In this document: positions 1,651 through 19,796 of the stretch, piece after piece | Layout: every line of letters begins with the position of its first letter | Numbering within the stretch: position 1 is the stretch's first letter | From: a virus | Taxonomy: Duplodnaviria > Heunggongvirae > Uroviricota > Caudoviricetes | DNA: 23,439 nt | Direction: 5' to 3' (one strand) | IMG/VR virus record: IMGVR_UViG_3300045988_013110 | Coordinates: 1-23,439 of that record | Position numbers and translations under genes: made by a program | Notes under the pieces: generated by a model | Database searches by the model: none | What the model saw: the letters and a program-made list of their open reading frames with translations, nothing else | What the model was told of the DNA's origin: nothing

Positions 1651-2297
1651 GCAGCACGCTCCCGCCCCTGGTTGTCTGTTGGTGACAGCGGAGCATTGCT
1701 GAATGCATTTGTTAATCTGGCAATATCCAACGCGTATCCAGGGTGTAGTTGCACTGCCGGGTCTTCGCACTGATTACCCCAAACATCGAAACCATGAGAC
1801 GACTGGCGGGCGAACAGTTCAATGCGAGAAACATCGCCTAACAATTGCACAAGTTTTTCACGAACGATATCTGGCTTTCTTGAATGCTCAAGCCGCGGTG
1901 CGGTAAATGACTGAACGATCCCTGCATTAATGCGCGTAGGTAGTTTTCCATTTACCGCAAACAGGCAATCTTCACTATTGGCGCGAGTCATGTGTCCCAT
2001 ACCCATAACCAGTTTATCTGGTTGTCGACTACCACATTTTATCCACGTGAAGCCCTTCATGGTCATCAGACGGAATCCCCAGGCTTCAACAACTTTTAGT
2101 GCTTCGAGTGGTTGTGTTGGCACCCACCACATGGCCAACAGACAGTTTTCATCGGCCAAATCCCACACAGGAAGGCGGCAGATATCCAGCACACTCATAA
2201 CCGGATATTTAAAACCGGCACCGCGATTACCATCTGCGGCTTTGTCCCGGTATACCCAGGGTGGATCTGCATAGATTAGTGTGTATTTCTTAGTCAT
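1647..2297 (-). CDS. DNA N6-adenine methyltransferase (MT-A70 / Dam-like, orphan)
   Basis: Motif IYADPPW matches the DPPW signature of N6-adenine methyltransferases. ATG at 2297 preceded by GGGGTGG; no adjacent restriction endonuclease candidate. Confidence 0.8.
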   Translation of the reverse strand: MTKKYTLIYADPPWVYRDKAADGNRGAGFKYPVMSVLDICRLPVWDLADENCLLAMWWVPTQPLEALKVVEAWGFRLMTMKGFTWIKCGSRQPDKLVMGMGHMTRANSEDCLFAVNGKLPTRINAGIVQSFTAPRLEHSRKPDIVREKLVQLLGDVSRIELFARQSSHGFDVWGNQCEDPAVQLHPGYALDIARLTNAFSNAPLSPTDNQGRERAA

Positions 2298-2589
2298 AAA
2301 CCACCCCACAACATCCTATGCCGCTATAGTCGCCACGGCGAAGGCCGTTACCTTTTGTGATACATTGGTCCCTGCGAACCGCGATCCTTGCACGTTCAAC
2401 ATCACCAGAAGCAACATCCATACACTGAAGCCAAAGGTGAGCGGCAATGCGGAACTGCCCTTTTTTCTCTCTTTCAATCGCGCGTTTTTCGATCTCTATC
2501 GCCGCAGGAGTAACGGCGATAACCTTTGAAGGACGGCGCATTGAAACCTTGTTCATGTGATATTTTTCAAGTCGGCTTAACTTTCTCAC
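2290..2589 (-). CDS. hypothetical protein
   Basis: 99-aa ORF; GAGGG Shine-Dalgarno about 10 nt upstream of ATG 2589; stop overlaps the methyltransferase start region. Confidence 0.4.
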   Translation of the reverse strand: MRKLSRLEKYHMNKVSMRRPSKVIAVTPAAIEIEKRAIEREKKGQFRIAAHLWLQCMDVASGDVERARIAVRRDQCITKGNGLRRGDYSGIGCCGVVYD

Positions 2590-5336: not shown

Positions 5337-5921
5337 TTATTGTTTGCTTTTTTCGTTCTGGTTGATGACAAATTCAATGTAACTTTCGATCTTTGCTTTC
5401 TCGGTTTCGGGTAACAATGCGTAGCGCGAGCGATCATAGTTGATGGTCGCAGGGTCGTGCGGGTGAATCAGTAATTCATAGCCGTGACGCCCGAATGCGG
5501 ATGCAACATTCTCCAGGGTGGAAATGGAAACGCTGACCTCATTGTTTAACAGGCGACTGATTGTCACCTGGGCGACGCCGGATGCGCGGTGAAGTTTTCC
5601 CTGCGTTGAAAGGTCGCGGCTTTCGCTCATCCAGCGTTCCAGGTTGTGAGCCGCCAGCTGACCAATGTCGCTTGGGCCGACAGGCTGAAAACCTTCCTGA
5701 GAAAGCGAGCGATCGATATCAAGCCAGTTACGGGGTTTATTGGCGGCAGCTTCAATTTTTCGCGCAACCTGGTCGCCGATAACCTTCTTGCCAAGAGCCC
5801 AGCGGTTTACCAGATTTGCCTGAGTTCCAAGTTTTTCTGCCATCCGCGTCTGAACACCATTGAATTCACGGTCGATCAAGTCGTTGAGATTTTGCCTGCG
5901 GACGTCCTGGATACTTTTCAT
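5337..5921 (-). CDS. prophage repressor (CI-like) with two HTH regions and no obvious S24 peptidase domain
   Basis: Two XRE-type HTH stretches (MAEKLGTQANLVNRWALGKK and ASGVAQVTISRLLNNEVSVSISTLENVA). No GDSM-type Ser/Lys autocleavage motif seen. Divergent from a Cro-like gene with operators in between. Confidence 0.7.
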   Translation of the reverse strand: MKSIQDVRRQNLNDLIDREFNGVQTRMAEKLGTQANLVNRWALGKKVIGDQVARKIEAAANKPRNWLDIDRSLSQEGFQPVGPSDIGQLAAHNLERWMSESRDLSTQGKLHRASGVAQVTISRLLNNEVSVSISTLENVASAFGRHGYELLIHPHDPATINYDRSRYALLPETEKAKIESYIEFVINQNEKSKQ

Positions 5922-10559: not shown

Positions 10560-10645
10560 TGCCGCCAGTTAAAGTTGTGATTATCACTTTGGTGATGATA
10601 GTGATTGCGAGAATCATGTCTGGTGAAGTTTGGTGGATATGGTAA
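10556..10645 (+). CDS. candidate hydrophobic micropeptide (29 aa)
   Basis: ATG overlaps the upstream stop (ATGA); GGA-rich Shine-Dalgarno. Product MMPPVKVVIITLVMIVIARIMSGEVWWIW looks like a single transmembrane helix. Below the ORF-track cutoff. Confidence 0.25.
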   Translation: MMPPVKVVIITLVMIVIARIMSGEVWWIW

Positions 10646-10983
10646 TGGCTAAGGCAGCAGCAGAGCGCAAAGCCGCTCAGAGAGCCAGACAAGCTGCATC
10701 TGGTGTGCGTAAGCTGGAGATTGTGCTTGATGCTCAGGAAATTGAAATGCTGGAGCGTAACTGTGCCACACGTCGCCCCGGGCGTGCGCCTTACGAATTT
10801 GGTGAGTATATAGCGTTACTGATCCGCCAGGATGATGCGCGCGTGCACGGGCGTATAAAATCGATCAGCAGAAAACGTTGCGGTAAGTGCGGCGAGAGAG
10901 TTCCTGTGAATTCATGCCCGTGTAATGGTGACTCGCAATGCTGGGTGACTAAAGGCTGGCATGAAACGAAATTAATATTGTGA
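10630..10983 (+). CDS. hypothetical protein with C-terminal Cys cluster
   Basis: C-terminus RCGKCGERVPVNSCPCNGDSQC; last gene before the terminator that precedes the packaging operon. The start could instead be ATG 10645. Confidence 0.45.
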   Translation: MVDMVMAKAAAERKAAQRARQAASGVRKLEIVLDAQEIEMLERNCATRRPGRAPYEFGEYIALLIRQDDARVHGRIKSISRKRCGKCGERVPVNSCPCNGDSQCWVTKGWHETKLIL

Positions 10984-11032
10984 CATGTCACGAGTGGGTT
11001 ATGCATGATGAATTTGATGGGTTTTGAATACT

Positions 11033-11058
11033 GCCGCCAACTATGGCGGCTTTATTTT
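11033..11058 (+). terminator. rho-independent terminator upstream of the terminase genes
   Basis: Stem GCCGCC / GGCGGC with loop AACTAT, followed by TTTATTTT. Confidence 0.65.
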
Positions 11059-11066
11059 GCATGGTA

Positions 11067-11102
11067 CTATTACCACAACGGTAACTATTACCACGGTGGT
11101 TA
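11067..11102. promoter_or_regulatory. operator-like sites and direct repeat at the packaging-operon entry
   Basis: Perfect TTACC-ACAAC-GGTAA (11070-11084) and imperfect TTACC-ACGGT-GGTTA (11088-11102), within a 10-bp direct repeat CTATTACCAC (11067-11076 and 11085-11094), immediately before the TerS start codon. Confidence 0.45.
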
Positions 11103-11701
11103 TGATGCCTGCTGAACCTAAAACCTATAAACGCAAATCAACGCAATTTAAGCCACTAACAGCAATGCAGGAGGCTTATTGCCAGTCATACATCAAAACG
11201 CCTGAAAACCAGACTCAGGCTGCGATTAATGCAGGATTCTCCCCAAATACAGCGGCAGTTAAAGCCAGTGTCATGATGCGCGATGAACGCATTCAGAAAC
11301 GGATTGCCGAGTTGATGGAGGAGCGCAACAAACGAATGCGCGTCAGTGCTGATTACGTTCTCATGCGCCTGGTGGAGATCGACCAGATGGACGTGATTGA
11401 CATTCTCAACGACGATATGAGCATCAAGCCGGTCTCGGAATGGCCTAAGGTCTGGCGGCAGTACCTGACAGGTTTCGAACTGGCCGACATGTTCGAAGGC
11501 CGTGGAGACGAGAAAGAGCTGGTTGGCATCCTCAAAAAAATTAAATGGCCTGACAAGGTGAAGAACCTCGAACTGATTGGTAAGCACGTCGACGTCAACG
11601 CATTCAAAGAACGCCTGGATGTTAATGTGAATGTGACAATTGCTGATCGCATAGCGGCAGCCAGGAAGAGACTGAAAGAACGTCAGGATGGCAATCAGTG
11701 A
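11102..11701 (+). CDS. terminase small subunit
   Basis: Start set at ATG 11102 because the track start at 11024 is a TTG lying upstream of the terminator. HTH-like segment LTAMQEAYCQSYIKTPENQTQAAINAGFSPNTAAVKAS is typical of small terminase subunits. Confidence 0.8.
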   Translation: MMPAEPKTYKRKSTQFKPLTAMQEAYCQSYIKTPENQTQAAINAGFSPNTAAVKASVMMRDERIQKRIAELMEERNKRMRVSADYVLMRLVEIDQMDVIDILNDDMSIKPVSEWPKVWRQYLTGFELADMFEGRGDEKELVGILKKIKWPDKVKNLELIGKHVDVNAFKERLDVNVNVTIADRIAAARKRLKERQDGNQ

Positions 11702-13173
11702 CAGATACAGCGTTATCTCCTGAAGAGCAGTTAATCGAGGATATTGCAGGGTTCACTCACGATCCGCTTGGCTATGCCCTCTATGCGTTCCCATGGGGGG
11801 AAGAGGGGACTGAACTGGCACATGCCACCGGCCCACGTCAGTGGCAGGCTGATGCGTTCCGAGAGATACGTGATCACCTGCAGAATCCAGAGACGCGATA
11901 TCAGCCGCTTATGCTGGCACGTGCTTCTGGTCACGGTATTGGTAAATCCGCATTCATCTCAATGCTGATCAACTGGGGCATGTCCACTTGCGAGGATTGT
12001 AAGGTCGTGGTGACCGCCAACACCGACAACCAGCTACGAACGAAGACCTGGCCGGAAATTATCAAGTGGTCAAACCTTGCTATCACGAAAGACTGGTTTA
12101 CCTGTACCGCTACCGCGATGTACAGCAATGACCCTGGGCACGACAAGCGGTGGCGAGCTGACGCAATCCCCTGGTCTGAGCACAACACTGAGGCATTCGC
12201 CGGACTACACAACGAGCGTAAACGCATCATTGTGGTATTTGATGAAGCGTCGAACATTGCGGATCTGGTGTGGGAAGTTGCCGAGGGTGCGCTAACGGAC
12301 GAAGACACTGAGATTATCTGGGTGGCTTTCGGAAACCCTACACGTAACACCGGGCGTTTCCGTGAATGTTTCCGCAAATACAAACACCGCTGGAAAACTG
12401 CGCAGATTGACAGCAGGACGGTGGAAGGCACCAACAAACAGCAGTTGCAGAAATGGGTTGATGACTACGGGGAAGATAGCGACTTCGTTAAAATCCGTGT
12501 GCGTGGCATATTCCCTGATGCATCTGAATTGCAGTTTATCCCTACCGGTCTTACTGACGAGGCAATGAAACGGGTGGTAACCGCTGCGCAGGTTGCACAT
12601 GCTCCGGTGATAATCGGTGTTGACCCGGCATATTCAGGCGTTGATGACGCGGTGATATACCTGCGGCAGGGGCTACACAGTAAGGTGCTGTGGACTGGCA
12701 ACAAGACTACCGACGATCTGATTATGGCGAAGCGTATCGCTGACTTTGAAGACCAGTATCAGGCTGACGCGGTGTTCATCGACTTCGGTTACGGAACCGG
12801 TTTGAAGTCAATCGGTGACGGCTGGGGTCGTACATGGCAACTTGTTCCGTTCGGTGGCGCGTCTACTGACCCGCAGATGCTCAACAAGCGTGGGGAGATG
12901 TTCAACTCATGCAAGACATGGCTGAGGCTGGGCGGCATGCTGGATGACCAGGAAACAGCGGACGACCTGTCGGCGGCAGAGTACAAAGTTCGAGTGGACG
13001 GTAAAATCGTTATCGAACCGAAGGAAGATATCAAGGAGCGGCTTGGGCGTTCGCCGGGTAAAGGCGATGCGCTACTGCTGACGTTTGCTTTCCCGGTCTC
13101 GAAACGCATAAATATACCAGGACAGCAAAGCCAGCAGGGAAGGGCCATTACAGATTACGATCCCTATGCTTAA
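11698..13173 (+). CDS. terminase large subunit
   Basis: 491 aa; Walker A-like GHGIGKS; GTG start overlapping the TerS stop (GTGA). Confidence 0.9.
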   Translation: MTDTALSPEEQLIEDIAGFTHDPLGYALYAFPWGEEGTELAHATGPRQWQADAFREIRDHLQNPETRYQPLMLARASGHGIGKSAFISMLINWGMSTCEDCKVVVTANTDNQLRTKTWPEIIKWSNLAITKDWFTCTATAMYSNDPGHDKRWRADAIPWSEHNTEAFAGLHNERKRIIVVFDEASNIADLVWEVAEGALTDEDTEIIWVAFGNPTRNTGRFRECFRKYKHRWKTAQIDSRTVEGTNKQQLQKWVDDYGEDSDFVKIRVRGIFPDASELQFIPTGLTDEAMKRVVTAAQVAHAPVIIGVDPAYSGVDDAVIYLRQGLHSKVLWTGNKTTDDLIMAKRIADFEDQYQADAVFIDFGYGTGLKSIGDGWGRTWQLVPFGGASTDPQMLNKRGEMFNSCKTWLRLGGMLDDQETADDLSAAEYKVRVDGKIVIEPKEDIKERLGRSPGKGDALLLTFAFPVSKRINIPGQQSQQGRAITDYDPYA

Positions 13174-13258: not shown

Positions 13259-13606
13259 TTATTTCTTGATAATATTTCCAGACATTGTGCTGGCGTTTCC
13301 ACCAACAGTTTCGCAGATTACATCTCCAGACATGGTGTTTACATTTCCCAATACATTGGAACAATGGACATCACCAGACATAGTTTTCACATAATGTGCA
13401 TCACCGCTTACAGTCACTGATCCATTTTCAATCTCAACACCTTCCACGCTTCCATTAATTGTTACGTTAATCTGTCCGTCAAGATTGCTATTTTTTTCGA
13501 CACCATCAACGATCACTTTTCCATTGTTAATCGTAATATGATGACCAGTGAAGTCTTCTCCGTTGACGCTAACGCTAGCACCACGTACGTTATTGATTTT
13601 AATCAT
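13259..13606 (-). CDS. reverse-strand accessory gene: Gly/Val/Asn-rich beta-helix repeat protein (bactofilin-like)
   Basis: 115 aa; repeated G-x-V/I pattern (ITINNGKVIVDGV..INVTINGSVEGVEIENGSVTVSGD..MSGDVHCSNVLGNVNTMSGDVICETVGGNASTMSGN). Only clear opposite-strand gene in the late region, bracketed by its own terminators. Confidence 0.6.
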   Translation of the reverse strand: MIKINNVRGASVSVNGEDFTGHHITINNGKVIVDGVEKNSNLDGQINVTINGSVEGVEIENGSVTVSGDAHYVKTMSGDVHCSNVLGNVNTMSGDVICETVGGNASTMSGNIIKK

Positions 13607-13714
13607 TATAAATCATCCTCTTTTTGAATCGAGATTAACCTCAGGAGATACTATGACATGTTTTTCATGTATGTCGTAATCTGCATCGATATCATAATTG
13701 TGACGTATCACGCC

Positions 13715-13739
13715 AAAAAAAATGCCCGGCGAACCGGGC
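13715..13739 (-). terminator. rho-independent terminator (minus strand)
   Basis: Stem GCCCGG / CCGGGC with loop CGAA; minus-strand T8 run follows. Confidence 0.6.
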
Positions 13740-19190: not shown

Positions 19191-19796
19191 ATGGCCTCTG
19201 TAGTAGAGATCTGCAATCGTGCGCTGTCCAATATTGGCAACAGCCGCAGTATTAACAGCCTGACGGAAGCCAGCAAGGAAGCAGGGGAATGTTCGCTGCA
19301 CTTTGAGGCCTGCCGTGATGCTGTGCTTTCTGATTTTGACTGGAACTTTGCTACCAAACGCGTGGCGCTTGCAGATACGAGCAATCCACCGCCTGACTGG
19401 GAATATGCGTACCAGTACCCGTCCGATTGTCTGCGCATTACTGAAATTATGCTTCCTGGTGTACGCAATCCAACAGCAGCAATGCGCGTTCAGTACGAAG
19501 TTGGTGCAGACACCAACGGAACAGGAAAGTTGATCTACACAGACCAGCCGCAGGCATGGCTCAAGTATGTATCTCGCGTTTCAGATGTAAACATGTTTGA
19601 TGCCATTTTTATGGAGGCGCTGGCCTGGCGTCTTGCGGCAGCCATTAACATGGCGCTGACTGGGAATGCGGATCTCGGTACATTTGCTCTCAATATGTAC
19701 AATCGCGTGATTCTTAGTGCTGGCTCGCATAGCCAGAATGAATCACAGGAACCACAGCCACCGGTTGACGAGTTTACCATTGCGAGGTTGTCCTGA
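19191..19796 (+). CDS. tail tubular protein A-like (T7 gp11-like)
   Basis: 201 aa; N-terminal pattern VVEICNRALSNIGNSRSINSL is similar to the gp11 N-terminus by recollection; size and position before the gp12-like gene fit. Confidence 0.55.
   Translation: MASVVEICNRALSNIGNSRSINSLTEASKEAGECSLHFEACRDAVLSDFDWNFATKRVALADTSNPPPDWEYAYQYPSDCLRITEIMLPGVRNPTAAMRVQYEVGADTNGTGKLIYTDQPQAWLKYVSRVSDVNMFDAIFMEALAWRLAAAINMALTGNADLGTFALNMYNRVILSAGSHSQNESQEPQPPVDEFTIARLS

Follow-up and report, generated by a model that had tools for sequence, protein, structure and literature searches.

An antiterminator encoded just 5' of its target terminator is classical phage logic, as illustrated by the N and Q proteins of lambda. 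The Q antiterminators of phages lambda, 82 and 21 use a binding element located in a constitutive promoter, which is followed by a short leader and a terminator. Other small phage proteins, namely P2 Ogr and P4 Delta, carry a Cys4 cluster. A further set of regulators, including the repressors and antitoxins Arc, Mnt, CopG, ParD, TacA and MazE, is built on a beta-strand, helix, helix (RHH) fold paired with palindromic operators, and most RHH proteins are repressors. MatP, the organizer of the E. coli Ter macrodomain, is also an RHH protein, and its 13-bp site, matS, is GTGACRNYGTCAC (PMC6907758). Finally, the zinc fingers of the TraR/YbiI family reside in proteins that bind RNA polymerase.

The DNA under study (hereafter 'the window') is a stretch of 23,439 nucleotides that represents a prophage of the TL-2011b/phiV10/epsilon15 type; this region shares 92-99% identity with the Escherichia phages TL-2011b, phiV10, ZX5 and PAS61, and Salmonella phage epsilon15 is also a relative. 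Phage phiV10 serves as a reporter phage in O157 detection (PMC11854483). The window carries, in order, an integrase gene, a leftward early operon, a cI-like repressor gene, a cro-like gene, replication and nin-like genes, the gene that is the subject of this report, and the terminase and structural genes (Table 1). A sequence-only reading of this DNA had singled out a Cys-rich ORF as the last gene before the terminator that precedes the terminase genes, and this placement is borne out by the terminator at 11033-11058 and by the Pfam and PHROG assignments of terS and terL that follow it.

For this formerly unannotated ORF we define a predicted domain make-up and a candidate operator, so that a putative regulator and its target can be placed to the base. 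Of the new results, the principal one is a 12-bp palindrome that the protein most likely binds; the site spans the stop codon of the gene itself, where the early genes give way to the packaging genes.

Table 1. Positions of the features discussed, in window coordinates
Feature	Position	Strand	Basis
cI-like repressor	5337-5921	-	
cro-like gene	6076		
Gene for the RHH and Cys4 protein (epsilon15 gp49 / N15 gp46 family, PHROG 536)	10645-10983	+	ORF, homologue lengths, PHROG 536 at 3e-54, AlphaFold2 pLDDT 92.3
Predicted N-terminal basic helix, residues 4-19, AAERKAAQRARQAASG	10654-10701	+	Model helix 5-19; column conservation
Predicted RHH core: strand ~22-29, helix 30-42, helix 52-75 continuing as a long stalk	10702-10869	+	
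Predicted Cys4 zinc knuckle (C79, C82, C91, C99), then C-terminal helix 100-108	10879-10941	+	AlphaFold2 model and column conservation
Perfect 12-bp palindrome overlapping the TGA stop; proposed operator	10980-10991		
Intrinsic terminator, GCCGCC-AACT-ATGGCGGC plus TTTATTTT	11033-11058	+	Consensus scan and MFE fold
Tandem pair of prophage-repressor operators of the epsilon15 type (ATTACCACAACGGTAAC, ATTACCACGGTGGTTAT), directly next to the start of terS	11069-11103		Direct repeats; NC_004775 annotation
Small terminase subunit (terS), first gene past the boundary	11105-11701	+	Pfam Terminase_2 2e-29; PHROG 51 1e-57
Large terminase subunit (terL)	11698-13173		
Degenerate palindrome copy GTGACGTATCAC, one half-site mismatch	13700-13711		Beside minus-strand terminator hairpin 13739-13724

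A conserved protein family with a predicted RHH core and Cys4 knuckle

The frame named by the sequence-only reading, 10630-10983 (+), is present, but the TTG at 10630 is only a mechanical start. Of 691 relatives, almost all of the 120 listed are 112 amino acids in length, and aligned family members begin with MAK or MPK. Therefore, the real gene is 10645-10983 (+), which begins with ATG, encodes 112 amino acids and has the sequence GGTGGA 9 nt 5' of the start codon. A 551-bp segment around the gene is found in 852 of 5,426 complete E. coli genomes; PGAP labels the gene 'hypothetical protein' in them. Neighbouring genes overlap, and the 85-nt gap that precedes this gene (10560-10644) is unusual; an inverted repeat, ATCAC-N4-GTGAT, resides within it at about 10583-10596. 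Homology among E. coli prophages begins at ~10632, about 13 nt before the ATG, and a mosaic junction therefore lies just 5' of the ribosome-binding site.

The protein matches PHROG 536 ('transcriptional regulator') over residues 6-116 of the 117-residue ORF and positions 2-114 of the 115-position profile (E 3e-54). Its orthologue in epsilon15 is gp49, which carries the RefSeq note 'similar to N15 gp46', occupies the same genomic position, and has the same palindrome over its stop codon with a terminator after it. The window protein is no different, and is an ordinary member of the epsilon15 gp49 / N15 gp46 family. Searches with tblastn located the protein in 147 phage records (phages of Vibrio, Escherichia, Salmonella, Klebsiella, Yersinia, Enterobacter, Aeromonas and Pectobacterium), and an exhaustive HMMER scan of 1.84 billion cluster representatives recovered only 149 at E <= 0.001. 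Pfam and NCBIfam scans of the protein and 61 relatives gave no model above threshold, and the family has no Pfam entry. Likewise, phmmer found no match among PDB sequences, and the sole Foldseek match among viral structures is a fragment of the same protein. Literature searches on this family, which covered late transcription of epsilon15 and phiV10, late activators combining RHH and zinc, the palindrome, Uetakevirus regulators and the SPC32H repressor, found no study or experimental work on it. Identity with P22 NinX was considered because of the equal length of 112 amino acids and a neighbouring 'NinX' label, but the two are unrelated, and P22 carries neither the gene nor the site. We conclude that the protein is a real, conserved and uncharacterised phage regulator.

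An AlphaFold2 model, generated from an alignment of 61 family members (28-76% identity) that was also used to score column conservation, is confident (pLDDT 92.3) and includes a helix (residues 5-19), an extended segment (~22-29), a second helix (30-42), a long helix (52-75), a knuckle (76-99) and a final helix (100-108). This model strongly supports an RHH fold with a basic N-terminal arm, followed by a helical stalk with a Cys4 knuckle that presumably holds zinc. Curated RHH models match below threshold only (RHH_5, 0.013; RepB-RCR_reg, 0.028; RHH_1, 0.071), each in one or two of the 61 members, and NF008671 (YbfE) is also sub-threshold at E 0.051. The best-conserved stretch of the entire protein is the N-terminal ERKxxQRxR, in which R13 is invariant and R8 is present in 59 of 61 members. 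We propose that this basic helix reads the invariant half-sites of the palindrome described below. Compared with RHH proteins of the Arc/Mnt/CopG type, the window protein adds this conserved N-terminal helix and the Cys4 knuckle on its long stalk, and its candidate operator is placed not in the promoter but over the 3' end of the gene that encodes it.

The cysteine cluster noted from the sequence alone, C-x2-C-x9-C-x-C-x5-C, is real and conserved, but the true spacing is C-x2-C-x8-C-x-C-x5-C and only four of its cysteines are kept in the family. In the 112-residue numbering, cysteines occur at positions 40, 79, 82, 91, 93 and 99. Those at 79, 82 and 99 are invariant in the 61 members, all of which have a fourth in the intervening loop (C91 in the window protein), and the commonest spacing is C-x2-C-x7-C-x9-C. 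C40 is present in 35 of 61 members, and C93 in just nine, as a lineage-specific residue. By column conservation, then, the cluster is a Cys4 unit, not a Cys5 unit.

A zinc finger of the Ogr or Delta kind had been suggested, with structure prediction as a way to examine it. The AlphaFold2 model does provide a conserved Cys4 knuckle, mounted on an RHH domain and stalk, but the kinship with Ogr and Delta fails. Ogr spaces its cysteines as C-x2-C-x22-C-x4-C (2, 22, 4, against 2, 8, 1, 5 in the window protein) and has no RHH fold, hhalign gives a probability of 0.3% against Ogr, and the window protein has no Pfam match to it. Moreover, the DNA-binding part of the modeled protein is the RHH domain, not the zinc cluster. 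The protein is very probably a zinc-binding, DNA-binding regulator.

A palindrome at the stop codon

Bases 2-4 of the perfect palindrome GTGACATGTCAC are the TGA stop codon of the gene. This arrangement is widespread, in that 83 of 93 distinct full-length homologues with flanking DNA carry GTGAC-N2-GTCAC no more than 3 nt from the stop. Measured from the end of the stop codon, the offset is -3 in 78 homologues and +3 in five, and ten have no copy nearby. The five homologues with the +3 offset end in TAA or TAG, and the palindrome follows as non-coding DNA. Stop-adjacent copies occur in seven of ten protein clusters (70% identity), and these clusters include a podovirus, myovirus ZF40, a P2-like Yersinia phage, N15-like telomere phages and lambdoid prophages. 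In 1.30 Mb of related loci there are 235 copies of GTGAC-N2-GTCAC where 1.2 are expected, with three in epsilon15, three in N15 and one in the P2-like Yersinia phage, and there are none in lambda, P22 and P2 (124 kb, all lacking a homologue). These data strongly support a tight and specific association between the protein and GTGAC-N2-GTCAC over its own stop codon.

The two GTGAC half-sites never vary and the spacer is always 2 bp, and the central dinucleotide can be AT, GC, TG, AC, CA, CT or CG. The identity of this dinucleotide tracks the sequence of the predicted beta-strand, which is RKLEIVLD with AT, TELRIKLE with GC and TRRDWVLE with TG. The covariation is phylogenetically structured and comes from few, related lineages, and it is consistent with binding rather than proof of it. 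At one locus (L171), the protein resembles the family in its N-terminal RHH part alone, its C-terminus being different and free of cysteines, and GTGACCGGTCAC is found near the 3' end of the gene, ~50 nt before the stop. Because the site is kept there without the knuckle, the palindrome appears to be linked to the RHH half of the protein and not to the zinc knuckle.

The association does have exceptions. Approximately 10% of the homologues lack a stop-adjacent site and yet have the terminator, some have no copy within 6 kb, and members of the Vibrio type have the site 138-226 nt downstream. It is conceivable that the palindrome is not the protein's site at all but a conserved element belonging to boundaries or terminators, or a site for some host factor, and merely travels with the gene while the protein acts elsewhere, for example on RNA polymerase in the manner of TraR. 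The homologues without a copy within 6 kb would be accommodated by this proposal, as would the frequent location of the palindrome at mosaic junctions abutted by different morons, and the behavior of gene, palindrome and the sequence into terS as a single inherited block, judging from the E. coli prophage homology that starts ~13 nt before the ATG. We nevertheless regard it as improbable, given that phages of unrelated types (podo-, myo-, sipho- and telomere phages) have the palindrome only when they also have the gene, that lambda, P22 and P2 lack it, and that extra copies lie far from the gene, one of them within a coding region. Furthermore, a 12-bp dyad with invariant half-sites and a variable center that co-varies with the beta-strand is what an RHH dimer would be expected to read.

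The half-sites GTGAC and GTCAC are the same as those of matS, raising the question of cross-talk with host MatP. A MatP-like role can be envisioned in which dimers on one to three palindromes per genome bridge or organize phage DNA through the Cys4 domain, serving replication, packaging or interference with host chromosome handling instead of transcription. Aside from the shared half-sites, this idea draws on the several dispersed copies in epsilon15 and N15, one of which is inside N15 repA, and on the extra C-terminal domain, which could mediate dimer-dimer contacts. However, the phage palindrome is 12 bp and its spacer is always 2 bp, never 3, one base shorter than that of matS; no 13-mer matS-like site is present in the six phage genomes scanned. 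No sequence homology to MatP is detectable (hhalign 0.5%), and the model has a zinc knuckle and lacks the four-helix bundle and coiled coil of MatP. A single copy is present in one complete P2-like genome and in several partial loci, where there would be nothing to bridge. We consider this architectural role improbable as well.

Two other interpretations of the palindrome were rejected. A perfect RNA hairpin is not feasible because the 5-nt arms are just 2 nt apart, and the MFE fold is instead a shifted 6-bp stem with a 4-nt loop. A CRP site is also excluded, in that the spacing of TGTGA...TCAC is 4, not 6. A weak promoter-like match (9 of 12) starts at the palindrome.

Ends of transcription units and repressor operators

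In the window, the palindrome is followed 41 nt later by an intrinsic terminator whose stem (11033-11050) has seven pairs, six of them G-C, ahead of TTTATTTT, and which also appears in the MFE fold. The corresponding distance in epsilon15 is 22 nt, and the spacer is not conserved. Across 129 unique contexts, a hairpin with a T-run is found within 80 nt of the site, on either strand, in 82, mostly at 0-41 nt. The stretch from palindrome to terminator (10972-11057, +) also coincides with a sub-threshold Rfam match to rseX, an Hfq-binding sRNA (29.9 bits against a gathering score of 50, E 0.04-0.13). Most of this score comes from the terminator, and the spacer portion is not conserved in epsilon15; an sRNA derived from the 3' UTR may nonetheless be encoded there.

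The additional copies of the palindrome occupy similar locations. All three in epsilon15 lie at ends of transcription units: the first is over the gp49 stop, 22 nt before an annotated terminator; the second is just past terL, beside a hairpin, at the point where a moron on the minus strand ends; and the third is over the gp18 stop, abutting the annotated terminator at 19531-19556. TL-2011b has an extra copy after ant with a terminator-like hairpin immediately downstream of it, and in many relatives terL is followed by a perfect copy that is 2-4 nt away from a hairpin and bordered by differing morons. N15 (locus L174) carries perfect GTGAC(TG/CA)GTCAC sites at 28550, 33237 and 39269. Of these three, one overlaps the gp46 stop, another falls inside the 5' part of repA, and another separates gene 33 from the terminator that precedes the ant (antirepressor) operon. 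Overall, the sites mark the ends of transcription units, and their distance from and orientation to terminators are variable. The degenerate copy in the window and the terminator beside it, GCCCGGTTCGCCGGGC plus T8 on the minus strand, lie at 13700-13739, with a minus-strand moron (13259-13606, PHROG 3163) on one side and the next gene of the plus strand on the other.

The region between the terminator and terS has a different character from the one first proposed for it. Direct repeats of ACTATTACCAC at 11058-11101 had been put forward as the target for a late-promoter reporter, but they are part of two tandem copies of ATTACC-N5-GGTAAT, a sequence annotated as the prophage-repressor binding site in the epsilon15 RefSeq record (NC_004775). 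The region thus comprises two repressor operators rather than late-promoter elements, and a reporter placed there would mainly read repressor control. In epsilon15, these operators are found in the immunity region and just before terS, gp3, gp20 and gp43. The copies in the window (5203, 5265, 5977, 8302, 8364, 11070 plus 11087, and 14302) fall in the immunity region, before internal early genes (8382), before terS and in the region before the portal gene. This distribution suggests that the prophage repressor acts directly at several units, late ones included. The operators before terS, gp3 and gp20 in epsilon15 suggest that late units may start on their own. A consensus scan revealed no sigma-70-like promoter at the terS operators. 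Copies of the palindrome are not at fixed distances from the repressor-operator regions.

Blocking or permitting read-through

Our preferred explanation, which we hold tentatively and at somewhat less than even confidence, is that the protein functions as a dimeric, site-specific DNA-binding protein that would bind the palindrome and serve as a roadblock or insulator at operon boundaries, blocking rather than permitting read-through. A dimer would place its beta-ribbon on the variable central 2 bp and its basic arms on the invariant GTGAC half-sites. Placed where the early-right operon finishes, 41 nt short of the terminator that sets terS apart, the bound protein would gate RNA polymerase traffic across this and similar operon boundaries. 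Polymerase would be stalled by the bound dimer in the last codons of the protein's own gene, before the stop codon has been transcribed, and this could create feedback on the synthesis of the protein. LacI bound near the end of lacI reportedly offers an analogy for such self-regulation. The bound protein might also strengthen termination next to it and thereby keep early or moron transcription out of neighbouring units, whereas transcription of the packaging genes would begin in a repressor-controlled region of their own (operators 11069-11103). If correct, such a roadblock would explain how morons and operons remain separate in mosaic genomes.

Several observations bear on this choice. First, adjacency to the stop codon is kept even where a co-transcribed gene comes next and no terminator is present (N15 gp47, a PHROG 1541 gene, xis). 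Negative gating is favoured because these terminator-free contexts leave a local antiterminator nothing to act on; it fits every context, these included. Second, a promoter or a fixed contact geometry is disfavoured because neither the sequence nor the length of the stretch from site to terminator is kept constant. Third, a site no more than 3 nt from the stop would make sense under negative gating because the stalled polymerase has not yet transcribed the stop codon. The repressor operators ahead of terS, gp3 and gp20 in epsilon15 and the prevalence of repressors among RHH proteins also favour negative gating. There are, however, points against the proposal. A roadblock immediately before a terminator looks redundant, and the scan that found no sigma-70-like promoter at the terS operators implies that the packaging genes may need read-through. 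In addition, the ~10% of homologues without a stop-adjacent site keep the terminator, and the Vibrio-type sites are too distant for feedback through non-stop mRNA.

The opposite possibility is that the protein is the late switch of epsilon15-like phages, suppressing termination locally or after loading onto the polymerase, with the Cys4 unit contacting RNA polymerase. Transcription of the early operon would then read into terS-terL and past further moron-associated terminators. The location of the gene is as expected for such a switch, in that no other early gene comes between it and the terminator ahead of terS, an order matching the classical logic of lambda N and Q, and a scan of 22 window ORFs turned up no antiterminator of the Q type. 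The order of gene, site, terminator and later genes recurs in several independent contexts (terS, the lambdoid ninB-HNH-Q genes, a Vibrio-type lysis cassette), and along the rightward path of epsilon15 each terminator-bearing boundary has one of the three copies. Even so, we judge this arrangement possible but rather unlikely. After terL, the palindrome precedes a terminator on the minus (moron) strand only; spacing from site to terminator ranges from 0 to 41 nt; and the family is also found at sites with no downstream terminator and in phages with their own Q or Ogr.

This last point also limits the suggestion that the gene holds the slot of Q, which is valid for this phage but not family-wide. 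N15 has gp46 alongside a Q-like gene of its own (gene 40), and its late promoter and terminator are separate, at 41162-41250. The P2-like Yersinia phage has its homologue after gene A plus an Ogr that is 61% identical to P2 Ogr. In ZF40 and in the lambdoid loci L094 and L098, the family gene is upstream of ninB, HNH and a PHROG-confirmed Q. The window phage resembles lambda in the order of gene, DNA site, terminator and late genes, but the protein is not homologous to lambda Q (hhalign 0.1%; no Pfam or PHROG match to Q) and, unlike the Q systems, the window has no conserved promoter between site and terminator. The analogy to Ogr and Q is positional only and the protein is not an activator of either type, although a role in switching on late genes is plausible.

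The C-terminal half of the protein is weakly similar to the RNA polymerase-binding TraR/YbiI zinc-finger family (HMMER E 0.015-0.03, with the top three PDB matches all in this family; hhalign 39%). The protein shares with the TraR/DksA C4 zinc finger (PF01258) the order helix, C-x2-C-G-x-x-(I/L)-P ... G-x-x-x-C, helix, and a span of 16-17 residues from the second to the last cysteine. However, PF01258 is C-x2-C-x17-C-x2-C, whereas the family is C-x2-C-x7-C-x9-C, and Thr occupies the position of the fourth TraR cysteine in 37 of 61 members. The absence of this cysteine, together with that of the acidic N-terminal tip of TraR, weighs against a polymerase-contacting switch. A more elaborate version, which we consider unlikely, is a DNA-tethered antitermination device that would be of a third phage kind: RHH dimers on 12-bp 'tags' at selected intrinsic terminators would employ a diverged TraR-like zinc module to engage RNA polymerase, causing read-through at tagged terminators only. 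If such a device exists, it would supply the early-to-late switch that is missing in epsilon15-like podoviruses, and in some lambdoid phages it would act as a timer upstream of Q. More broadly, a modulator of termination that acts from a DNA site would, if true, constitute a new mechanism in the timing of phage gene expression.

In many epsilon15-like relatives, an umuD-like moron with a LexA box, or another small gene, resides between the RHH-Cys4 gene and terS. Many relatives (L093, L107, L108, L121 and others) have a near-consensus sigma-70 promoter, TTGACT-17-TATACT, 6 nt past the palindrome, and this promoter overlaps the LexA box TACTGT-N8-ACAGTA. The LexA-boxed promoter drives a truncated UmuD-like gene (PHROG 3469) inserted before terS, and these elements lie 10-110 nt past the palindrome. 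Elsewhere in the window, the leftward operon encodes a PerC-family 'transcriptional activator' at 2290-2589 (-) (PHROG 868; Pfam PerC, 6e-07), which is a second candidate activator or regulator in this prophage.
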